Assembly: GCF_965237845.1 (NCBI RefSeq)
Contig: NZ_OZ250154.1
Location: forward strand, 657,831-721,830
From: Candidatus Spongiihabitans sp.
GTDB taxonomy: Bacteria; Pseudomonadota; Gammaproteobacteria; Arenicellales; Poriferihabitantaceae
Reading direction: 5' to 3'
DNA length: 64,000 nt
Shown here: one piece after another, positions 41,337 through 57,990 of the stretch
How the letters are laid out: the number at the start of each line of letters is the position of its first letter
How positions within the stretch are numbered: position 1 is the stretch's first letter
The notes under the pieces: generated by a model
Told to the model about the DNA's origin: nothing
Seen by the model: only the letters and a program-made list of their open reading frames with translations
The model's database searches: none
Program-made: the position numbers and the translations under genes

Positions 41337-41946
41337 TGTCCGGGCTCAGACACAAATGAGACTATTAAGAGGATAAAAAATCGGGCAGTCCGTGGTGAAA
41401 TCCTTTCACTTAAATCACAGGCGCCTGCCCGATGCAGATCAAAAGCCTGCGTATCCAATCATATGACCGCCAAGGATGGCGGAAATGCAGGTTTTGCAGG
41501 AGCGAAAACCGGTCCGCAGTTCGGCGAGTGCGTTGGCTTGGACGCGATCGAAAGAAGGAGGGGCGGCGATTTTCCTGGAGCGTTGCCTCAAACTCACGCC
41601 ATTCGCCCGCCAACAAGGGGGCGCCGACAGCGGCGGCGAGTTCAGGGGCGGTTTCGATCAACTGCTCACCGACAGTAACATCACGCATCTATGGACTTAT
41701 CCGAAAAGGCCGAAGATGAACGCGCATGGCGAGCGCTTCAACCGCACCATACCGGCGCAGTTTGTGGATTATCACGAAAATCATCTGTTTGACGATCTCG
41801 ATTTGTTCAACCAAAAACTGGCCGATTGGCTGGTCAAATACAACGCCATTCGACCGCATAAAGGGCTTGAACTGAAAACACCGGCTCAGGCTGTCATTGA
41901 AAACAACAAAAAATGCAATATGTGGTGGACCCATACAAAACCCTGA
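41337..41946 (+). mobile_element. Second deletion derivative of the same or a related rve-type IS; left inverted repeat present, right end missing
   Basis: The same left end tgtccgggctcagacacaaatgagactattaagagg and ~190 bp similar to 17058-17250. The residual transposase C-terminus is GGEFRGGFDQLL...ITHLWTYPKRPKMNAHGERFNRTIPAQF...YNAIRPHKGLELKTP. Confidence 0.7.
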
Positions 41947-43949: not shown

Positions 43950-44027
43950 TGGCTGGGGTGGGAGGATTCGAACCTCCGAAATGCCAGAATCAAAATCTGG
44001 TGCCTTAGGCCGCTTGGCTACACCCCA
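43950..44027 (-). tRNA. tRNA-Gln (anticodon UUG)
   Basis: The reverse complement reads TGGGGTGTAGCCAAGCGGCCTAAGGCACCAGATTTTGATTCTGGCATTTCGGAGGTTCGAATCCTCCCACCCCAGCCA. It is closely similar to E. coli tRNA-Gln with anticodon loop TTTTGAT. My hand fold gives 78 nt, i.e. a slightly long D and variable region. Confidence 0.85.
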
Positions 44028-44257: not shown

Positions 44258-45232
44258 ATGAACCGAGCTCAATACGGCGCAATCACGGAAGGCGCGGAAC
44301 GAGAAATAGGATTTTATCTCTCCGATAATTTCAGTATGCTGCCATTCATATCTGCGGTGGAGCCTTTACGCATAGCCAATCGCATGTCGCGCAAACCGCT
44401 GTATCAGTGGTCTATCGTCACTGAAAATGGAGACAGTGTTTTCGCAACCAATGGGATGGAATTAGCCGCAAAATATGCCGTTAAGAATGCACCGGATTTT
44501 TCCATGATCTTTGTAAACGGCCCCCATGAACCTAAAAATTTCAATCACCGACCGACGCTCAATTGGTTAGCAGGGCAGAGTAAGCGCGGCATTGTTATTG
44601 GGGGAATTGAAACGGGTTGCCACATTCTCGCTGAATCGGGTCTTCTGGATGGTATTCAATGCACTACCCATTGGGAAAACCAGGTCGAGTTTGTTGAAGC
44701 TTTTCCAAAACATAAAGTTTCATCCGATGTCTATGAGATCGACGGCAACCGAGTGACCTGTTCCGGGGGAGCGGTTTCCATGGATATGATGCTCTATATC
44801 ATTGAGCAACATCATGGTCACGAATTAGCCGCCTCGGTGGCGGATGTGATGATTCATCCAAATATTTGCCACCCCGGCGAACCACAGCGAATGAATGTTC
44901 AGGCGCGCACCGGCGTAAGCCATCCAGCGTTGCTGGAGTGTATTGAGCTGATGGAAGCCAATATAGAACAACCGCTATCGCCTAACGAATTAGCGCGTTT
45001 GGTCGAGATATCCAAACGCCAGTTGGAAAGATTGTTCCGCCGCTATTTGAATACCACCCCGGCGCGCTACTATCTGAATATGCGGCTGGATGCCGCTCGA
45101 AAAATGTTGGAGACAAGCGCTATGAAAATTATTGATGTCACGGTAGCTTGCGGGTTTAAATCTGCTGGACATTTCAGCAGCCGCTCTTATTCCAGCTATG
45201 GCGTTACCCCGCGAGATTCACGTAAAATCTGA
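44258..45232 (+). CDS. GlxA-family (DJ-1/PfpI + AraC HTH) transcriptional regulator
   Basis: N-terminal amidotransferase-like domain (IGFYLSDNFSMLPFISAVEPLRIAN) and C-terminal AraC HTH (LSPNELARLVEISKRQLERLFRRYLNTTPARYYLNMRLDAARKML...ACGFKSAGHFS). Confidence 0.85.
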   Translation: MNRAQYGAITEGAEREIGFYLSDNFSMLPFISAVEPLRIANRMSRKPLYQWSIVTENGDSVFATNGMELAAKYAVKNAPDFSMIFVNGPHEPKNFNHRPTLNWLAGQSKRGIVIGGIETGCHILAESGLLDGIQCTTHWENQVEFVEAFPKHKVSSDVYEIDGNRVTCSGGAVSMDMMLYIIEQHHGHELAASVADVMIHPNICHPGEPQRMNVQARTGVSHPALLECIELMEANIEQPLSPNELARLVEISKRQLERLFRRYLNTTPARYYLNMRLDAARKMLETSAMKIIDVTVACGFKSAGHFSSRSYSSYGVTPRDSRKI

Positions 45233-45375
45233 TAATTGATTGGAATGCCTGAAATTTTAACGGACGCAGAAATTGAAATTCGAGTCGTTAAATATTACAT
45301 GATTGAAATCGGTTTCAATGATACTCAGCGTTCTTTTTAAACATTAAACTAACATTAAAACTTAGGCTCAAACTT

Positions 45376-46953
45376 ATGGTTAGAAGAGCAGGTGGAAGAG
45401 AAGCAAGAAAGGCATTACGCGCCGCACCGTTAGCCGAAGAGAATAAACCGGTTCGACCGGGGCAAAGCGGCGGCCGATTTATGCCGCTTACTGATGATGA
45501 TTTAAAACGTGTGCATGAAGCCATGCTTGATCTTTTGGAGAATGTTGGTTTTACTCGGCAGCTGCCATCGTGTGTTGAAATGGTGACTAAAGCTGGAGGA
45601 AAGTTAACCGCGGAAGGGCGGTTATTATTTCCCAGAGAGCTGATTGAATGGACTATGGAAACCTGTGCTCGAGATATTACCCTGTACGGTCAGTCTCCTG
45701 AACATGATATGCACCTAAGTGGAAACCAAATATATTTTGGCACCGCTGGCGCGGCGGTGCATGTCGTCGATGATTGGAAGCATCATGATCAATACAGCGG
45801 CAGAAAAGCGGGTGTTTATCGGGAATCCACGCTTCAGGATTTATACGATGCGGCGCGCTTGGTGGATTATCATGAGCATATTCATTTTTTCCAACGCTGC
45901 ATGGTTGCCCGCGATATCGAGCAGCCTGCAGCGATGGATTTGAATACCACCTATGCCTCGGTTGCCGGCACCACCAAACACTGCGGGGTAAGTTATGTGG
46001 AACCGCAACACGCCGAGGAAGGCTTGAAACTGTTGCATGAAATTGCCGGCGGTGAAGATAAATGGCGGGCTCGGCCGTTTGCCAGCGTGTCCTGTTGTTT
46101 TGTTGTGCCGCCATTACGTTTCGCTGAAGATGCATGCCGGGTTATGGAAGTATGCGTGCGCGGCGGTATGCCGATATTGTTGCTCGCGGCTGGGCAGGCT
46201 GGCGCGACCAGTCCGGCATCGCTGGCCGGCGCGGTGGTGCAGGAATGCGCCGAGTCTTTGGCGGCATTGGCATATGCTAATCTGATTGTTCCGGGGCATC
46301 CCTGTATCTATGGCCCATGGCCGTTTGTTTCCGATTTACGCACCGGCGCCATGAGCGGCGGCAGTGGCGAGCAAGCGATTTTGATGGCCGCCTGCGGCCA
46401 GGTCGGCCGCTATTTGGACTTGCCCACAGGTATTGCCGCGGGCATGGCGGATTCCAAAATTCCCGATGCCCAGTCTGGATTTGAAAAAGGCTATACGTTA
46501 GCGCTTGCCGGCCATAGCGGCACCAATTTGGTGTATGAAACGGTGGGGATGCAGGCAAGTTTGCTGGGCTTTAGTTTTGAGGGCGCGACCATCGATAATG
46601 ATATGCTGGGCGCGATCAATCGTAGCGTTCGCGGCGTTGAAATCGATATCGAGAACCTTGCCCTGGAAACCATCGAGGATGTTTGCATAAACGGCCCGGA
46701 GCATTTTCTTGGACACCAGGCCACTTTATCGAGGATGGAAACCGATTACGTTTATCCTGATGTCGGCAATCGATTAACCCCGGCGGAATGGCAGGAATTG
46801 GGCTCCAAAACAGTCAATGATGTGGCGCGGGAAAAAACCCGGGAAATACTCGCTAGTCATTTCCCATCCCATATTTCCGATGAACTGGATGCTCGAATTC
46901 GTGAAAAATTTGATATTCGACTTCCCCGGCAACAGATGCAGCCCAAAATTTGA
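45376..46953 (+). CDS. MttB-superfamily (trimethylamine methyltransferase-like, non-pyrrolysine) methyltransferase
   Basis: 525 aa. RRAGGREARKALRA...PLTDDDLKRVHEAMLDLLENVGF is the characteristic MttB-family N-terminus. Uninterrupted ORF with no in-frame TAG. Confidence 0.8.
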   Translation: MVRRAGGREARKALRAAPLAEENKPVRPGQSGGRFMPLTDDDLKRVHEAMLDLLENVGFTRQLPSCVEMVTKAGGKLTAEGRLLFPRELIEWTMETCARDITLYGQSPEHDMHLSGNQIYFGTAGAAVHVVDDWKHHDQYSGRKAGVYRESTLQDLYDAARLVDYHEHIHFFQRCMVARDIEQPAAMDLNTTYASVAGTTKHCGVSYVEPQHAEEGLKLLHEIAGGEDKWRARPFASVSCCFVVPPLRFAEDACRVMEVCVRGGMPILLLAAGQAGATSPASLAGAVVQECAESLAALAYANLIVPGHPCIYGPWPFVSDLRTGAMSGGSGEQAILMAACGQVGRYLDLPTGIAAGMADSKIPDAQSGFEKGYTLALAGHSGTNLVYETVGMQASLLGFSFEGATIDNDMLGAINRSVRGVEIDIENLALETIEDVCINGPEHFLGHQATLSRMETDYVYPDVGNRLTPAEWQELGSKTVNDVAREKTREILASHFPSHISDELDARIREKFDIRLPRQQMQPKI

Positions 46954-46986
46954 AGAACAAGTAGTCATAATAAAGAGGCATTAATC

Positions 46987-49434
46987 ATGAATATGAGCGA
47001 AAAAGAACTGCCTTCCCAGGCAAAAGTGGTGATTGTTGGCGGTGGCATGATGGGCGCGAGCCTGGCCTATCACCTGGCCGAGGAAGGCTGGAGCGATTGC
47101 TTGTTAATTGAAAAAGGCGAGCTGACATCCGGCTCAACTTGGCATGCCGCTGGCCAGTGTGCCAGTTTCATCGCTGATTTCAATATGGCGAAAATTCATG
47201 ATTACGGCGTGCGGTTGTATCCCACACTTGAACAATTAACCGGTCAATATGTCAGTTGGCATGGCTGTGGCGGTATCCGGTTCGCGTTAAAACCGGCCGA
47301 GGTGGAATGGTTTCAGCGCGTCAAAGGCGTTGGAAAAATGATTGGCTTCGATTGCGAGATTATCGATCCCGCAAAAATCAAGCAATTAATTCCTTACGCC
47401 AATATCGACGGCGTGCTTGCCGGCGCGCAGACCTTTACCGATGGCCATGTTGATCCGGCCGGGGTGTGTAATGCCATGGCCAAAGGGGCGCGGCAAATGG
47501 GCGCGACAATAGTGACGGGCAACCGGGTCACTGATATTAAGCAGCGTAAATCCGGTGATTGGGAAGTGTTCACGGAACAGGGCAATGTCATCGCCGAGCA
47601 CGTCGTTAATGCGGCCGGGTGCTATGCCCGGCAGGTCAGTCAAATGGTGGGTGCCGATGTGCCGATGATCAATATGAAGCACACCTATCTGGTTACCGAC
47701 ACGGTTCAGGAATTTTTGGACCGGGAGGACGAAATGCCTGTAATTCGTGACCCCTATCCATCCTCATACTATCGTCAGGAACAAAAATCCGGGTTGATTG
47801 GCATTTATGAAATGCAGAATTCCGAAGAGTGCTGGACTCATCGGGGTGGTTGGCCTGAATGGGATTCGGAAAATGAGTTGTTCGATGCAAATTTTGAAAA
47901 CATCATGCCCTATGTTGAACGGGTAATGGAACGAATTCCAATGTGGCGTGAACTCGGCATCAAGCGCGTGGTATGCGGCGCCATACCGCATACCCCGGAC
48001 AGCAATCCGTTTCTCGGGCCAGCCGCAGGATTGCGAAATTTCTGGCATTGCAACGGTGCGTCAATCGGCATAGCAGCGGGTGCCGGCTCGGGCAAATACC
48101 TTTCCCAATGGATGATTTACGGCGATGCGGAAATCAATATGGCTGGTGTCGATCCGCGCCGCTTCAGTGATTATGCGCCGGGGGATTACACCAAAGGAAA
48201 ATCCCACGAAGATTATGAACATATGTATAAGCTTCACCTTCCGGGCGAAGAGCGGCCGGCTTCGCGCAAACAACGAACTACCCCGTTATATGATTTGCTG
48301 GTATCCCGGGGCGCTGTGCACACCGAGGCCAACGGTTGGGAAAGGCCAAAATGGTTTTCCCTTGACGGTCGAATTGAAGACATTGGATTCCGCCATAACA
48401 ATACCTTTGAAGTAGTTGCAGAGGAATGCCGTGCGGTTCGCGAAAGAGTGGGCGTTTTGGAATTGTCCACATTTGCAAAATACGATGTGGTTGGAAAAGA
48501 TGCCGAGCAGTTTTTAAATCGAATCAGCGCTAACAAAATGCCCATTCGAGAAGGCGGCATCGCCTTGACCCATTACTTGGCGGAAAGCGGGCGGCTCAAT
48601 GGCGAATCTACGGTCACACGATTGCGAGAAGGGCGATACTATGTGCTTTCAGGTTCTGCCAGCGAAGAACGAGATTTGTCTATTTTGACCTATGGTATTG
48701 CTGACGGTGAGGACGTAACCATAACCAATATTACCGACCATTGGGGCGTCATTGTGGTTGCAGGCCCCAGCGCGCGTGAAACCCTGGCTGGACTGACAGA
48801 GTCGGACTTATCTAACCAATCATTTCGTTGGTTAACAGGAAAGGAAATTGAGATTGCGGGGTATGCAGTTAGGGCGTTGCGGGTCAACTATGTCGGCGAA
48901 CTCGGATGGGAATTGCATTGCCCGATGGCAAATATGCTTGGAGTCTATGAAGCTGTTTGGGCAGCCGGCCAAGCCTATGGCATCGCAAACTTTGGAACCT
49001 ATGCGATGAATTCCTTGAGAATCGAAAAAGCCTACAAAGGCTGGGGCGCGGAATTAACCAATGAAATATCCATGCTGGAAGCAGATGCCATGAGATTCTT
49101 TTCAGCGGAAAAAGAAAACTTTGTTGGCCGGCAGGCAACGCTGGATGTGGTCGAAAATAATACAGCAACACGACTGGTCTATTGTGCAGTGGAAGCAGGC
49201 GATAACGACGTAGTTGGTGGTGAAACCGTTTTAGACGGTGACAAAGTCATTGGCGTGACCACCTCGGGCGGCTACGGGCACACGACGCAACGTAGCCTGG
49301 GCTTTGCCTATGTTGAACCTAAATACGCCGAACCCGGGTCAAATTTTGATGTCTATCTGTTGGGCGAGAATAGAAAAGCCACGGTTTTAAGCGAACCTGT
49401 TTGGGATCCCGCTAACGAAAGACCGCGGGCATAG
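46987..49434 (+). CDS. Dimethylglycine/sarcosine dehydrogenase-like fusion protein (FAD oxidoreductase domain + GcvT folate-binding aminomethyltransferase domain)
   Basis: 815 aa. VVIVGGGMMGASLAYHL, GSTWHAAGQC (covalent-FAD His context). The C-terminal ~400 aa are GcvT-like (GVLELSTFAKYDVVGKDAEQFLNRISANK...RIEKAYKGWG). Confidence 0.85.
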   Translation: MNMSEKELPSQAKVVIVGGGMMGASLAYHLAEEGWSDCLLIEKGELTSGSTWHAAGQCASFIADFNMAKIHDYGVRLYPTLEQLTGQYVSWHGCGGIRFALKPAEVEWFQRVKGVGKMIGFDCEIIDPAKIKQLIPYANIDGVLAGAQTFTDGHVDPAGVCNAMAKGARQMGATIVTGNRVTDIKQRKSGDWEVFTEQGNVIAEHVVNAAGCYARQVSQMVGADVPMINMKHTYLVTDTVQEFLDREDEMPVIRDPYPSSYYRQEQKSGLIGIYEMQNSEECWTHRGGWPEWDSENELFDANFENIMPYVERVMERIPMWRELGIKRVVCGAIPHTPDSNPFLGPAAGLRNFWHCNGASIGIAAGAGSGKYLSQWMIYGDAEINMAGVDPRRFSDYAPGDYTKGKSHEDYEHMYKLHLPGEERPASRKQRTTPLYDLLVSRGAVHTEANGWERPKWFSLDGRIEDIGFRHNNTFEVVAEECRAVRERVGVLELSTFAKYDVVGKDAEQFLNRISANKMPIREGGIALTHYLAESGRLNGESTVTRLREGRYYVLSGSASEERDLSILTYGIADGEDVTITNITDHWGVIVVAGPSARETLAGLTESDLSNQSFRWLTGKEIEIAGYAVRALRVNYVGELGWELHCPMANMLGVYEAVWAAGQAYGIANFGTYAMNSLRIEKAYKGWGAELTNEISMLEADAMRFFSAEKENFVGRQATLDVVENNTATRLVYCAVEAGDNDVVGGETVLDGDKVIGVTTSGGYGHTTQRSLGFAYVEPKYAEPGSNFDVYLLGENRKATVLSEPVWDPANERPRA

Positions 49435-52988: not shown

Positions 52989-53993
52989 ATGAGAATGAGT
53001 CAAATCAAGAGATTTTGGTGCCATATGATGCAAGTCGTCCTGATCGGAGGATTCGGCGTTGCCGCCAGTATGCTTTGGAATCCGGTGCAAGCGGCGGAAG
53101 TTGAAAAAATTCACTTTCTGATTCCGGGAGGGGCAGGAGGCGGATGGGATGGAACGGCTCGCGGGACCGGGGAAGCGTTAACCAAATCGGGGCTACTGAA
53201 GCATGCGTCTTACGAAAACATGTCTGGCGGCGGCGGTGGAAAAGCCATTGCCCACATGATTGAAACCGCAGAACGACAAAAAGGAACGCTGATGGTGAAC
53301 TCCACCCCGATTGTGGTGCGTTCCATCACCAAAGTGTTTCCGTATTCGTTTCGTGATTTAACCCCCATTGCAGGAATTATCGCAGATTCCGCTGTTTTTA
53401 TCGTTCAGGCGGATTCGAAGTTTCAATCCTGGCAGGATGTGGTTGCGGCTTTTAAATCGGATTCAAAAAAAGTTAAAGTGGGCGGCGGTTCCGTGCCCGG
53501 GGATTTGGATCATATTGCCGTCGCTTTAGCCATCCAGGCAGCGGGTGAAAATCCTAAAAAAGTCAAATATATCGCTTATGACGCTGGCGGGAAGGCGATG
53601 GCAGGGTTGTTATCCGGTGAGATCCATGTGTTGTCCACTGGATTTGGAGAAGCATTGGAGTTATCGAAGTCTGGACAAGTTCGCATTCTAGCGATCACTT
53701 CTGCCACTCGTTCCAAAGACGCTCCGAATGTCCCCACGGTGAAAGAATTGGGATATGACATGATCTTTGCCAACTGGCGCGGGTTTTTCGGCGCTCCGGG
53801 GTTATCCTATAACGAGGCTCATGTCTATGCCAGTCTGCTCCGGGACATGTACGCAACGCCGGAATGGGAAACCGTTCGTGCCCGCAGAGGCTGGACCAAT
53901 CAATACGTGCCCGGATTCCAATTTTATAGTTTTCTGGAGGAACAGGAAAAAGCGATTGGCGGCATGTTGCGGCAATTAGGGTTTTTGAAATAA
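52989..53993 (+). CDS. tctC: Tripartite tricarboxylate transporter substrate-binding protein (TctC/Bug family)
   Basis: 334 aa, signal peptide, PGGAGGGWDGTARG motif typical of Bug/TctC proteins. ATG at 52995 has better spacing from the AGGAA at 52984-52988. Confidence 0.85.
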   Translation: MRMSQIKRFWCHMMQVVLIGGFGVAASMLWNPVQAAEVEKIHFLIPGGAGGGWDGTARGTGEALTKSGLLKHASYENMSGGGGGKAIAHMIETAERQKGTLMVNSTPIVVRSITKVFPYSFRDLTPIAGIIADSAVFIVQADSKFQSWQDVVAAFKSDSKKVKVGGGSVPGDLDHIAVALAIQAAGENPKKVKYIAYDAGGKAMAGLLSGEIHVLSTGFGEALELSKSGQVRILAITSATRSKDAPNVPTVKELGYDMIFANWRGFFGAPGLSYNEAHVYASLLRDMYATPEWETVRARRGWTNQYVPGFQFYSFLEEQEKAIGGMLRQLGFLK

Positions 53994-54024
53994 GAATCCC
54001 GCCCTGGATACCACGAAAGGAGCA

Positions 54025-54531
54025 ATGAATTTTAGCCGGATTCATAAAGCCCATATTCATAAAGACAAGGTCGGCGCATTGATCTTTCTGATCTTTTCCG
54101 TTGCCTATGGCGTGTCTTCCCGGGATATTAAGATTCCTTTGTTTGCGGAAGAAGATGTATTTAATTCGCGAACCTTGCCCATCGCATTGGCAATTTTAGG
54201 AGGGACAACCTCCTTGTTGTTGTTGATTTTGCCGTCTTCTTCTGGAAAAGAAGCAAGTGTCGGGGAAGCATTTCGTGGTCTGTACTGGAAAGAAGTGATT
54301 CTGTTGTTGATTTTGATGGTCGTTTATGGATTGACCATCAAAGTCGTCGGATTCATTGTTTCCACCATTCTTTTTCTGGCGCTGGGGTTTTGGATTTTAG
54401 GAGAAAGACGAATCAAAGTAATCTTGCTGACTTCGGTTCCTCTGGTGCTTGTGTTTTGGTATATCCTGAGCCAATTGCTGGATATCTATATTGATCCGGG
54501 AAGTTTTTTCTATTTTCTGAGAGGCATGTGA
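54025..54531 (+). CDS. tctB: Tripartite tricarboxylate transporter small membrane protein TctB
   Basis: 168 aa, four TM helices, sits between tctC and tctA. The stop overlaps the tctA start (ATGA-type overlap at 54528-54531). Confidence 0.75.
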   Translation: MNFSRIHKAHIHKDKVGALIFLIFSVAYGVSSRDIKIPLFAEEDVFNSRTLPIALAILGGTTSLLLLILPSSSGKEASVGEAFRGLYWKEVILLLILMVVYGLTIKVVGFIVSTILFLALGFWILGERRIKVILLTSVPLVLVFWYILSQLLDIYIDPGSFFYFLRGM

Positions 54532-56036
54532 TGTTAGAAGGAATTCTTGCCGGGTTATCGACCACTTTTTTACCCATTAACTTATTCCTGGTGTTGGTCG
54601 GATGTTTTGCCGGAACCTTTATTGGAATGCTGCCAGGGCTGGGACCGATTTCCGCCATTGCCTTGATGATCCCCATTACTTATGGGTTTGAACCGGCCTC
54701 CGGGATGATTCTAATGGCCGGGGTGTATTATGGCGCGATTTTCGGCGGTTCCACTTCTTCCATTCTGCTCAATGCGCCGGGAGTCGCCGGAACCGTCGCA
54801 ACCGCGTTTGATGGCTATCCGCTTGCCCAACAAGGAAAAGCCGGAAAAGCTTTAGCGCTGGCTGCGTATTCTTCTTTTTCAGGCGGGACGATTGCCGCTG
54901 TTTTTTTGTTGATTGCCGCTCCGGCGCTGGCTTCGGTTTCTTTAAGTTTCCAATCTTCGGATTACTTTGCCTTGATGGTGCTGGGGCTGACCGCCGTGTC
55001 CGCCTTTGCGGGCAAGGGCGGATTCCTGAAGGCAATAATGATGACGGTGCTGGGTTTGATGCTGTCGACCGTGGGGACGGATGCATCCGCCGGCATTCAA
55101 CGGTTCACGTTTGGGCGCGTGGATTTGATTGATGGCATCAGCTTTCTTCTGTTAGCGATGGCCACATTCGCTTTATCCGAAGCCTTGATGGTGATTCTCA
55201 AAAGAACAAAAATCTCGAAAAAAGCGCAACAAGCGACCCACGGAAATCTTGGCAGCCTCAAAGTATCCAGGCAAGAATTCAAGGGAATTGCGCCCACGAT
55301 TGCGCGCTCTTCGGTGTTGGGGTTTTTTGTTGGGGTCTTGCCCGGAGCCGGAGCCACGATTGCGTCTTTTCTCGCCTATGGAATGGAAAGAAATTTAGCC
55401 AAAGTTCAGCACAAAGCTCAATTTGGCAAGGGAAGCCTCAAAGGGTTGGTTGCGCCTGAAACCGCGAACAACGCCGCCTGCTCCGGTTCTTTTGTGCCGC
55501 TACTGACGTTGGGAATTCCCGGTTCCGGAACCACAGCGGTGATGCTGGGCGCTTTGCTGTCTTATGGAATTCAGCCCGGCCCGCGGTTGTTTGTGGAACA
55601 GCCGCAAGTGTTTTGGTCGGTGATTATATCCATGTATATCGGCAATATCATTTTGCTGATTTTGAACCTGCCATTAATCCCTTACATCGCCAAATTATTA
55701 ATGTTGCCCAAGCAGCTGCTGACCCCGATGATTTTGTTTTTTTCTCTGATTGGCGTATATTTGGTATCGTTCAATCCGTTTGACATCCAAATGATGATCT
55801 TTTTTGCCATTGCGGCGTTGCTCCTGAGAATTCTGGATTTTCCGATGGCGCCGATGTTACTGGGATTTGTTTTGGGGGGAATGATGGAAGAAAATCTCAG
55901 ACGGGCTTTGCTGATCAATGATGGCTCGTTTTCTTTTCTTTGGGAGCGTCCGATCACCTTATCGATTCTGATCATCATCTTGTTGACGATTCTCGCCCCG
56001 GTGGTTTCTTATTTCAAACCGGTGGCGCCCGATTAG
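54528..56036 (+). CDS. tctA: Tripartite tricarboxylate transporter large permease TctA
   Basis: 502 aa polytopic protein. GMLPGLGPISAIALMIPITYG and VGVLPGAGATIASFLAYG repeats are typical of TctA. Confidence 0.88.
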   Translation: MMLEGILAGLSTTFLPINLFLVLVGCFAGTFIGMLPGLGPISAIALMIPITYGFEPASGMILMAGVYYGAIFGGSTSSILLNAPGVAGTVATAFDGYPLAQQGKAGKALALAAYSSFSGGTIAAVFLLIAAPALASVSLSFQSSDYFALMVLGLTAVSAFAGKGGFLKAIMMTVLGLMLSTVGTDASAGIQRFTFGRVDLIDGISFLLLAMATFALSEALMVILKRTKISKKAQQATHGNLGSLKVSRQEFKGIAPTIARSSVLGFFVGVLPGAGATIASFLAYGMERNLAKVQHKAQFGKGSLKGLVAPETANNAACSGSFVPLLTLGIPGSGTTAVMLGALLSYGIQPGPRLFVEQPQVFWSVIISMYIGNIILLILNLPLIPYIAKLLMLPKQLLTPMILFFSLIGVYLVSFNPFDIQMMIFFAIAALLLRILDFPMAPMLLGFVLGGMMEENLRRALLINDGSFSFLWERPITLSILIIILLTILAPVVSYFKPVAPD

Positions 56037-56088
56037 GGATTGGCCCGGAATTAATCAGCCCAAAATTGATCGTTATCAGGTTGTAATC

Positions 56089-57990
56089 ATGCAAGTTGCA
56101 AAAATTCGCGCCGCAACAATTTATGCTGATTGCGCCATTGAAGAAAATAAGCGCCGGTGTGATGTCATTGATACCGAAATTACCACAACCATTCCCGGGT
56201 TGTTCGAGGAAAGGGTAAGACGCAGTCCTGACAAAAAAGCCTATTCGCAATTCGATCCAGTCCGAAATGAATGGGTTGAATACACTTGGCAGGATATGGC
56301 GAATGATGTCAATCATTGGCGCAGAGCGATTGCCGCTGATGGCATGGCGCCCGGGCAACGCGCGGCAATTCGCATGGCTAACTCCAGAGAGTGGGTTTTA
56401 TTCGACCAGGCGGTATTGGCCCAGGGCTTAATCGTGGTCCCGGTTTATGTCGAAGATCGCGCAGACAACATCGCCTACATTCTTGTGGATACCGAAACTC
56501 GGTTGCTGCTGCTTGAAAAATACTCGCAGTGGTTGGAGATGGAACAGCAGTTGCTATCGTTAACGGCCTTAAAGCGCGTAGTCATTGTTCATGACGATAC
56601 GCATGACGATACTCATAGGGACGATAATGATGAAATTACAAATTGCGGCGATGCTAGGGTAATGTCATTGAATGCCTGGTTGGCTTCGGCCATGCCGGTT
56701 GTGCCTCAAAACCCGGCGATTGATGCAGACGATTTGGCAACCATCGTTTATACCTCGGGCACAACAGGAAAACCAAAAGGGGTGATGCTTTCTCACTCAA
56801 ACATGTTTTTGAATGCCTACGGTGGCTTGCAAAGCGTGGCGGTGTATCCATCGGATCAATTTCTTTCTTTTTTACCGTTGTCGCATATGTTTGAGCGCAC
56901 GGCGGGATACTATTTGACCATGATGGCGGGCGCTGCAGTTGCGTTCAGCCGCTCGGTCCCACAACTATTGGACGATATGGCGGAAATCAAACCTACCTGC
57001 ATGATTGCCGTTCCGAGAATTTTCGAACGCGCCTGCTCGAAAATTAAAACCCGCTTAGACGCAGGACCAAAATTAAAAAAATGGCTGTTTGAACAAGCGG
57101 TTAGCGTGGGTTGGCAGTGTTTCGAAAATCAGCAAGGTCGATCAAAGTGGCGCCTTAGACAGTGTTTCCGGCCGATACTCAATGCCCTGGTTGCCGGTAA
57201 AGTGGCACAGCGATTTGGTGGCCGATTGCGCTTTGTGGTTAGTGGCGGCGCTCGATTATCGCCGAATATCGCCAAAGTGTTTATTGGTCTCGGTATTAAA
57301 ATCTTGCAGGGTTATGGCTTGACCGAAAGCAGTCCGGTACTGACAGTGAATACCTTGTCCCGAAACAAGCCTTGTTCCATTGGATTACCGCTCCACGGCG
57401 CCGAACTACGATTGGGAGATAATGATGAATTGCAAGCCAAAGGGCGGTACATCATGATGGGCTATTGGAACAACCCGCAAGCCACGGCCAAAACCATAGA
57501 TTCGGAAGGTTGGCTGATGACCGGCGATATTGCCAATATTTCCGAGCAAGGTTTTATTTCCATTACCGGAAGAATCAAGGAGATAATCATTTTGGCGAAT
57601 GGTGAAAAAGTGCCGCCAGCGGATATGGAGTCAGCGATAATTGACGATCCGTTGTTCGAGCAAGCGATGGTAATAGGAGAAGGCAAAGCCTGCCTCACCG
57701 CCCTTATTGTGTTAAGCCCTGAGGTTTGGCCCGAAGTCGCCTTATTGCTTGGCGTTGATCGGTCCGATAAAACGGCATTGCAAAGCGAAAAAGTAAAACA
57801 ATTTGTTTTAGATAAAATCGCCGATCAATTAACCGAATTTCCGGGCTACGCATTTATTCGACAGGTAACGCTTTCTACCGATGTATGGAGCGTCAGCGAT
57901 GGCGCTATTACGCCCACACTAAAGCTCAAGCGACCGGTGCTCATGGAGCGATTTAAGACCGAAATTGAATTGATGTATAACCCGCCCTGA
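56089..57990 (+). CDS. AMP-dependent acyl-CoA synthetase/ligase (long-chain FadD-like)
   Basis: IVYTSGTTGKPKGVMLSH, GYGLTES, TGDIANISEQGFISITGRIKEIIILANGEKV. Confidence 0.85.
   Translation: MQVAKIRAATIYADCAIEENKRRCDVIDTEITTTIPGLFEERVRRSPDKKAYSQFDPVRNEWVEYTWQDMANDVNHWRRAIAADGMAPGQRAAIRMANSREWVLFDQAVLAQGLIVVPVYVEDRADNIAYILVDTETRLLLLEKYSQWLEMEQQLLSLTALKRVVIVHDDTHDDTHRDDNDEITNCGDARVMSLNAWLASAMPVVPQNPAIDADDLATIVYTSGTTGKPKGVMLSHSNMFLNAYGGLQSVAVYPSDQFLSFLPLSHMFERTAGYYLTMMAGAAVAFSRSVPQLLDDMAEIKPTCMIAVPRIFERACSKIKTRLDAGPKLKKWLFEQAVSVGWQCFENQQGRSKWRLRQCFRPILNALVAGKVAQRFGGRLRFVVSGGARLSPNIAKVFIGLGIKILQGYGLTESSPVLTVNTLSRNKPCSIGLPLHGAELRLGDNDELQAKGRYIMMGYWNNPQATAKTIDSEGWLMTGDIANISEQGFISITGRIKEIIILANGEKVPPADMESAIIDDPLFEQAMVIGEGKACLTALIVLSPEVWPEVALLLGVDRSDKTALQSEKVKQFVLDKIADQLTEFPGYAFIRQVTLSTDVWSVSDGAITPTLKLKRPVLMERFKTEIELMYNPP

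Follow-up and report, generated by a model that had tools for sequence, protein, structure and literature searches.

Aerobic marine bacteria demethylate glycine betaine with MtgB, an enzyme of family PF06253, whose partners are MtgC, the one core cobalamin protein, and MtgD, which binds pterin and works in both directions (Mausz et al. 2025, PMC12478193). MtgC and MtgD are essential and present singly, RamA and DUF1638 are co-induced and predicted to reactivate the cofactor, and in Ruegeria pomeroyi the mtg genes are unlinked (PMC12478193). A genome may hold up to seven PF06253 open reading frames (ORFs), which probably serve other methylated compounds through the one MtgC (PMC12478193). Here I consider a relative of MtgB, a homolog of the methyltransferase MttB, encoded in a 64,000-nucleotide (nt) stretch of Candidatus Spongiihabitans sp. 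(the window, G000:C1:657831-721830, part of the single-contig, 2.74-Mb genome G000). The closest public loci come from sponge symbionts: metagenome-assembled genomes of Candidatus Spongiihabitans (95-96% identity) and others of the Poriferihabitaceae and Arenicellales. The parts of the locus, with positions in the window, are as follows.

44258-45232, forward strand: GbdR-like GATase1/AraC regulator (DJ-1_PfpI and HTH_18 domains), 324 amino acids, by Pfam and NCBIfam
45263-45291, forward strand: operator-like motif, putative site of the regulator, by alignment of orthologous intergenic regions
45376-46953, forward strand: non-pyrrolysine MttB-superfamily methyltransferase of a subclade called here 'G...YE', 525 amino acids, PF06253
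46987-49434, forward strand: N-demethylase of the dimethylglycine dehydrogenase (DMGDH) family, dependent on flavin adenine dinucleotide (FAD) and on tetrahydrofolate, type A paralog, 815 amino acids, DAO, FAO_M, GCV_T and GCV_T_C domains

I think it reasonably probable that a cobalamin-dependent system of the aerobic MtgBCD type has six substrate-specific spokes (MT1) in this genome, that the MttB homolog is among them, and that it carries out the first step of a sequential N-demethylation whose trimethylammonium substrate is probably not glycine betaine. The system as a whole belongs to a known kind; the unstudied part is the MttB subclade. With the MtgBCD(E) glycine betaine methyltransferase/split methionine synthase of R. 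pomeroyi and Sinorhizobium meliloti it shares a PF06253 enzyme, a single MtgC, MtgD, and RamA with DUF1638, and also the unlinked genes, the several PF06253 paralogs and the demethylases of the dimethylglycine/sarcosine type that are often nearby (PMC12478193). The window enzyme differs in being of neither the MtgB1 nor the MtgB2 type, in lacking the Arg and His residues of the pocket, and in having a regulator of its own.

An earlier, sequence-only reading of the locus named the three genes as a regulator, an MttB homolog and a DMGDH-like enzyme, and Pfam and NCBIfam agree with those identities for the ORFs listed above. It also remarked that the window holds no cobalamin-binding protein and no activase, and it took the methyl acceptor of the MttB step to be an open question. 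The remark was correct: a profile search of the genome finds neither a B12-binding domain nor a RACo activase in the 64 kb. Matches to B12-binding domains fall only at 597, 1469 and 1929 kb and to RACo only at 601 kb, the window covering 657.8-721.8 kb. The question, however, has a probable answer, since a full set of MtgC, DUF1638, MtgD and RamA lies about 100 kb upstream.

L012:5068-5763: MtgC, B12-binding_2 and B12-binding domains, with invariant DxHxxG (D115/H117/G120, His-on), SxL and GG motifs
L012:5705-6451: DUF1638, after MtgC in the hub
L012:6910-7812: MtgD, pterin-binding corrinoid:tetrahydrofolate methyltransferase, Pterin_bind 96 bits
L012:8231-10261: RamA/RACo activase, RACo 300 bits

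This MtgC, the one small corrinoid protein of the genome, is encoded at 597.07-597.76 kb, about 100-106 kb upstream. The hub runs in the order MtgC, DUF1638, MtgD, a GFA-family protein, RACo/RamA and an EamA transporter, with one MttB paralog (606k) nearby, and the genome also carries CbiC and CobS, which mark cobalamin synthesis. The layout matches the published hub-and-spoke model point by point. The missing corrinoid partner is therefore no puzzle, because the genome carries one shared, unlinked hub.

Related genomes bear on the same point. I examined 126 of them, 121 sampled at the level of the order and five from the Paracoccaceae (G121-G125). An MttB hit occurs in 102 of the 121, and every one of those 102 has an MtgC ortholog (E<=1e-87). 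The 19 genomes without an MttB hit show weak matches to B12 domains at best (1e-23 to 1e-28 in 18 of them, none in the remaining one, which is 59% complete). One MtgC stands against 2 to at least 12 MttB matches in the family f1, and each of the five Paracoccaceae genomes, which carry MttB orthologs of 50-53% identity, has one MtgC, 74-79% identical. In two relatives the hub lies close to a member of the clade. In G112 an MttB of the clade (53% identical) immediately precedes MtgC, on its strand, and next to the pair come two DMGDH-family genes, one of them a 58% ortholog of the DMGDH-like gene. In G013 the distance between a 65% ortholog of MttB and the set RamA-MtgD-DUF1638-MtgC is 8-14 kb, and a GbdR-like regulator lies in the interval. 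The sequence-only reading had itself said that a corrinoid protein and activase beside an equivalent cluster in relatives would make this the canonical system split up, an arrangement seen in G013 and, for MtgC, in G112. Going by the co-occurrence in 126 genomes and the adjacency in G112, the MttB homolog would methylate MtgC. Prediction of a complex of MttB (alignment A3) with MtgC (A2) gave a median score of 0.27 against a mark of 0.32, which is evidence neither way.

It is worth asking whether the enzyme might do without a B12 protein altogether, with tetrahydrofolate, or the GcvT domain of the neighboring enzyme, as the direct recipient of its methyl group. Such a novel acceptor would suit the lack of any corrinoid gene in the window or within 8 kb on either side in 66 related loci, and it would suit a clade divergent from all characterized members. 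I hold it to be very improbable, given that the clade is never found without an MtgC ortholog in the genomes examined, that MttB and MtgC form an apparent operon in G112, that the glycine aligned with the corrin-contacting Gly110 of the pyrrolysine (Pyl) enzyme Pyl-MttB is invariant (PMC9842639), and that the superfamily offers no precedent.

The hub protein MtgC is 74-79% identical between this gammaproteobacterium and the Paracoccaceae, which are Alphaproteobacteria, while the MttB spoke is just 50-53% identical. Either a docking hub with many partners is under strong constraint or there has been lateral transfer.

What, then, does the spoke act upon? The MtgB of Desulfitobacterium hafniense (PDB 2QNE, 9YCE; PMC13080624) belongs to the same superfamily, has the same TIM-barrel fold and likewise lacks Pyl. 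It binds glycine betaine through Y97 and F356, by cation-pi interactions, and through R312 and H348, which hold the carboxylate; all four are essential (Picking et al. 2026, PMC13080624). R312L and H348E each abolish activity, and every characterized non-Pyl member keeps R312 and has an acidic quaternary amine as its substrate (PMC13080624). Residues were mapped by HMMER alignments to 9YCE and 7XCL, which are free of gaps at the pocket sites and anchored by the motif P...DSK.PDAQ.G.E.

MtgB Y97: G110 of Pyl-MttB, G125 of the window MttB
MtgB R312: Y329 of Pyl-MttB, G352 of the window MttB
MtgB L317: Pyl334 of Pyl-MttB, M357 of the window MttB
MtgB L347: Y364 of Pyl-MttB, Y387 of the window MttB
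MtgB H348: G365 of Pyl-MttB, E388 of the window MttB
MtgB F356: not mapped in Pyl-MttB, L396 of the window MttB

The betaine-binding motif of MtgB (Y97/R312/H348/F356) is thus not matched, its place being taken by G125/G352/E388/L396, and on the neighboring strand W315 and F317 are new invariant aromatics. G125, G352, Y387, E388 and L396 are invariant in 22 sequences of the clade, down to 51% identity; the Pyl-aligned position varies among Met, Ile and Ala. The host differs as well, being aerobic, unlike D. hafniense. Since the Arg/His pair that grips an acid group is missing from the pocket, its place taken by an invariant Gly and Glu, the substrate is probably neither glycine betaine nor another betaine held as in the known enzymes. 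The sequence-only reading had proposed, as a way to be proved wrong, that the conserved substrate-binding residues be absent and that the MttB homolog and its DMGDH-like neighbor fail to be conserved together. The first part is indeed the case with respect to MtgB; the second is not, as described below, for the two genes are conserved together.

Other enzymes in the same genome look better suited to glycine betaine. G000 has six scattered PF06253 paralogs. Four of them form a core, scoring 622-767 bits to the Pfam model, and the window MttB is about 26% identical to these. All four retain the Arg and His, and two, 606k and 171k, retain the Tyr as well. The other two paralogs are divergent, the window gene at about 359 bits (cut-off 25; residues 4-510, the full length of the protein) and a gene at 2505 kb at 285 bits. 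Against solved structures 606k, the paralog by the hub, scores 778 bits with 4YYC, 416 with MtgB and 121 with MttB; for the window enzyme the figures are 191 with MtgB, 182 with Pyl-MttB and 112 with 4YYC. Then there is G066, the most reduced of the relatives, which has exactly two MttB genes, one of the 606k type and one of the window's own type (703k), a retention of both that argues for distinct, non-redundant substrates. The pocket residues and this retention lead me to think that the 606k-type enzyme takes care of glycine betaine and that the 'G...YE' clade probably acts on something else.

An alternative view is that the locus serves ordinary glycine betaine catabolism, with the window enzyme a divergent MtgB working through the same MtgC hub, its neighbor a true dimethylglycine dehydrogenase, and the regulator a sensor of betaine or dimethylglycine. 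Glycine betaine is, after all, the known substrate of the aerobic system (PMC12478193), and mammalian DMGDH matches the adjacent enzyme at 622 bits. The regulator adds a further argument, to which I return, as do the pairs of DMGDH-family genes in other lineages. Nevertheless I judge this view unlikely. All four validated betaine-binding residues differ, and the Glu that is invariant here is the very substitution that kills MtgB in H348E. Two paralogs, 606k and 171k, keep Tyr, Arg and His, and the betaine-induced MtgB1 and MtgB2 of R. pomeroyi are other genes. The pocket residues speak against glycine betaine while the gene context fits it. The sequence-only reading was right to leave the substrate open.

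The relation to Pyl-MttB needs a closer look, since that is where the structural resemblance points. By its PDB bit scores and by a tree of representatives the MttB homolog can be placed within the superfamily: in the tree, paralogs with Arg and His (node value 100) stand apart from a large radiation without the Arg, and the window enzyme falls within that radiation in a clade of five rows (node value 97). An AlphaFold 2 (AF2) model (predicted template-modelling score, pTM, 0.74) has a TIM-barrel fold like those of MttB and MtgB. Foldseek ranks 7XCL first (E 8e-32), then 2QNE (1e-30) and 4YYC (2e-25), and the best match is thus the Pyl-MttB of Methanosarcina barkeri (PDB 7XCL-7XCN; PMC9842639), with TM values of 0.73/0.78. 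Shared features are residues equivalent to Gly110 and Tyr364 and a nucleotide similarity downstream of the Pyl codon. The differences are that the window gene has no TAG and has Met at the Pyl position, and that its host is bacterial, aerobic and a sponge symbiont. The score with TIGR02369, the Pyl-type equivalog, is 338 bits, under the cut-off of 525. The codon aligned to Pyl334 is ATG (Met357), and the sequence-only reading had correctly seen no in-frame TAG, since ORF 45376-46953 has no internal stop.

The nucleotide similarity takes the form of a match to the Rfam model PYLIS_3 ("pyrrolysine insertion sequence mttB") at 46444-46543 on the forward strand (53 bits against a gathering score of 38), which begins exactly at the Met codon aligned with Pyl334, in a gene without a TAG. 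As a functional element I rejected it. Its predicted pairs are mostly non-canonical, the score arises from the coding motif that follows the Pyl position, and the match recurs in orthologs of the clade and, marginally, in the Arg-type paralog 606k. None of 150 representatives is truncated at the Pyl-aligned codon. The match looks like coding conservation and not like an element for inserting pyrrolysine, an artefact that could mislead automatic annotation.

Does the enzyme nonetheless descend from a trimethylamine methyltransferase, having lost its Pyl and still acting on trimethylamine or another simple methylamine? The residues G125 and Y387 in common with Pyl-MttB, the first rank of 7XCL and the PYLIS_3 match from the Pyl-aligned codon are what such a history might leave behind. 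I give it very little credence. The Pyl position is occupied by Met, Ile or Ala and so is not invariant, while the activation of a tertiary amine is considered to require Pyl (PMC9842639). The PYLIS_3 score has its source in coding sequence and recurs in an enzyme of the Arg type, no relative is cut short at the critical codon, and the product, dimethylamine, is not a known substrate of the DMGDH family.

The flavoenzyme next door bears on the order of events. The DMGDH-like gene follows the MttB gene after a gap of 33 nt, and with so small a gap the two are probably co-transcribed. Its product has the DAO, FAO_M and GcvT architecture of mammalian DMGDH (4P9S, 5L46) and of Arthrobacter dimethylglycine oxidase (1PJ5), with scores of 622 and 297 bits, the former against the rat enzyme (4P9S), over the whole length of the window protein. 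It differs from these in being one of at least four paralogs in G000, three of which score alike (about 620 bits) against mammalian DMGDH. Because three score equally, the similarity does not specify a substrate, which removes some of the support that it seemed to lend to glycine betaine.

Around the orthologs, broad conservation extends to just three genes: MttB at 28 loci, the DMGDH-like gene at 24 and the regulator at 12. In the 20 genomes of f1 the MttB and DMGDH-like genes are directly adjacent in 13, within 8 kb in four and far apart in three; in f4 they are adjacent in all four. The linkage of MttB with a DMGDH-family gene is found also in G112, in S. meliloti and on one contig labelled Chloroflexi. 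Linkage in four lineages supports a sequential demethylation, in which MttB would take the first methyl group and flavoenzymes the next, and the sequence-only reading, which had suggested such a route feeding tetrahydrofolate, gains from it. The DMGDH-family enzymes fall into two types. Type A comprises the window gene, the first of G112 and R. pomeroyi RS21385; type B comprises the G000 gene at 2043 kb, the second of G112, R. pomeroyi RS21390 and a frameshifted, unannotated gene of S. meliloti. In S. meliloti, under a LysR regulator, a DMGDH-family gene and the type-B gene precede a true MttB of the clade (LZK74_28410), which is 54% identical and has the same signature in its pocket.

Some details of these loci deserve record. 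In the closest relatives, inserts of 1.8, 0.7 and 7.5 kb split MttB from the DMGDH-like gene (L042:9567-11349; L017:9576-10254; L035:9567-17114), and the insert in L042 holds two ORFs (233 and 135 amino acids) without a Pfam match. In S. meliloti Ak57 (L110:6439-8888, CP090106.1) the type-B gene reads in three frames between the annotated FAD oxidoreductase and MttB, and is either a frameshifted pseudogene or the product of a sequencing error; CP090106.1 is labelled pSymB yet is 3.7 Mb long.

The regulator is matched best by the NCBIfam model of GbdR (NF052371), at 346 bits, and is the sole GbdR-like protein of the genome (the only blastp match at E<=1e-15). GbdR of Pseudomonas aeruginosa, a GATase1-like AraC protein, governs the catabolism of betaine and dimethylglycine; the window regulator shares its pair of domains and sits beside methylamine-catabolic genes, but falls under the equivalog cut-off (346 against 480). 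Among 29 related loci, 12 have a regulator of this kind upstream of their MttB ortholog. A motif of 29 nt, about 85-110 nt upstream of the MttB start, has the core GNCGC..A...AA.TT...GTCG, invariant in 10 orthologous intergenic regions that bear the regulator, and 45263-45291 is the only place in the 2.74-Mb genome where the strict pattern is found. It is a putative binding site of the GbdR-like protein. Scans for sigma-70 promoters and terminators gave counts at chance level. LysR regulators are found instead at the loci of G112, S. meliloti and R. pomeroyi, and because other lineages use them the effector cannot be inferred from the family of the regulator.

I propose that the parts act as follows. 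The MttB homolog would demethylate a trimethylammonium compound once, loading the methyl group onto the cob(I)alamin that the single MtgC carries. The pterin-binding MtgD would pass it on to tetrahydrofolate or, alternatively, homocysteine-binding modules would pass it on to make methionine. RamA/RACo and DUF1638 would re-reduce cofactor that has become oxidized. The tertiary amine that remains would be demethylated oxidatively by the type A flavoenzyme, its methyl carbon going to tetrahydrofolate by way of the GcvT domain, and the unlinked type-B paralog at 2043 kb would probably remove the last methyl group. The GbdR-like regulator would control the MttB/DMGDH pair through the conserved upstream operator.

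If the pocket means what it appears to mean, then the 'G...YE' subclade would consist of cobalamin-dependent methyltransferases, in aerobic bacteria, that act on quaternary amines with a new class of specificity. Their substrate would be a trimethylammonium compound bound otherwise than through the Arg/His clamp on acid groups of all characterized members (candidates are a choline-type compound or another non-carboxylate osmolyte derived from the host), with demethylation finished by a dedicated pair of DMGDH-family enzymes, types A and B. The clade itself is universal in the Poriferihabitaceae sponge symbionts, widespread in the Arenicellales, and present also in Paracoccaceae and Sinorhizobium. 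I put the new class forward tentatively, as a possibility that falls somewhat short of an even chance. The subclade is uncharacterized, and by alignment its pocket is unlike that of any studied enzyme. An exhaustive search of 1.84 billion representatives gave only about 20 full-length clusters that reach 38% identity, and the exact signature is confined to four of them.

Several observations weigh against the reading that I favor, that of a spoke of the MtgBCD-type hub. The pocket loops of the AF2 model are of low confidence, and a divergent mode of binding betaine, through other conserved basic residues, could be imagined. The best model for the regulator is GbdR, and MttB with two DMGDH-family genes, as in G112 and S. 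meliloti, supplies just the steps from betaine to dimethylglycine to sarcosine to glycine. The signal for methylenetetrahydrofolate reductase (MTHFR, PF02219), which would oxidize the methyl-tetrahydrofolate made by the hub, is weak, 21.7 bits at G000:C1:1194658-1194942, and is the only one in the genome. Nor is the pairing of MttB with DMGDH universal: in f2, f12 and f13 the MttB orthologs (64-67%) are not beside a close DMGDH ortholog, and in Paracoccaceae the gene is solitary. The neighborhoods of the Paracoccaceae orthologs and of the L022 sub-lineage give no hint of a substrate, holding housekeeping genes only. As an aside, the weak MTHFR signal sits in a 325-amino-acid ORF beside a sarcosine-oxidase-like cluster.

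One operon seemed for a time to offer a key to the substrate. On the megaplasmid of R. pomeroyi DSS-3 (L109, NC_006569.1:339974-350270) a LysR gene diverges from a tight operon of MttB, a class-III aminotransferase, two FAD/GcvT enzymes and an Xsc-like thiamine pyrophosphate (TPP) enzyme, the last scoring 394-401 bits, under the cut-offs. It looks like a complete path from a trimethylammonium compound to an aldehyde cleaved by the TPP enzyme, and I found no literature on it. The key does not fit. The MttB of this operon belongs to a sister subclade with the signature S...TQ, and G000 encodes nothing close to the operon's aminotransferase or its TPP enzyme.

Two other MttB paralogs of G000 have notable surroundings. 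A second pair of MttB, of the Arg/His type, with a DMGDH-family gene occupies G000:C1:887591-891657 (L015:7592-11658), preceded divergently by a PhnD-like periplasmic binding protein and a fusion of APH, M23 and class-III aminotransferase domains (1039 amino acids, NF004799). The sixth and most divergent paralog, at G000:C1:2504551-2506065 (L016:7552-9066, reverse strand), also lacks the Arg; its neighbors are YjbR, an aldehyde dehydrogenase, an alpha/beta hydrolase, a luciferase-like monooxygenase and a flavin reductase, and the region may be another uncharacterized methylamine module.

As for the immediate surroundings, the annotation of the neighbors bears out the earlier statement that no betaine transporter is adjacent: the 3' neighbors of the module are a TolC-like OEP, a methyltransferase, a His-phosphatase and a TctCBA transporter, none of them of the betaine type. 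The last, a tripartite tricarboxylate transporter (TctC-TctB-TctA), is followed by an AMP-binding enzyme like acyl-CoA synthetases (window 52989-57990, 3.5 kb downstream), and these genes are not conserved alongside the module. On the other side are the truncated remnant of an IS481-family transposase (rve_3, 156 amino acids; window 41476-41946, forward strand), 2.3 kb upstream of the module, and a tRNA gene immediately upstream of the regulator (window 43953-44027, reverse strand), which is present also in L042.

A single shared, unlinked B12 hub explains why this locus appeared to lack a corrinoid protein, and for that reason other MttB loci seemingly without one should be judged at the level of the genome. 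What the locus contributes is a compact and well-conserved subclade of MttB with a distinct pocket and dedicated flavoenzyme partners, one member of which is in the genetically tractable S. meliloti. If its substrate proves to be new, then methyl transfer that depends on cobalamin would extend further, in oxic marine and host-associated habitats, than is now known.

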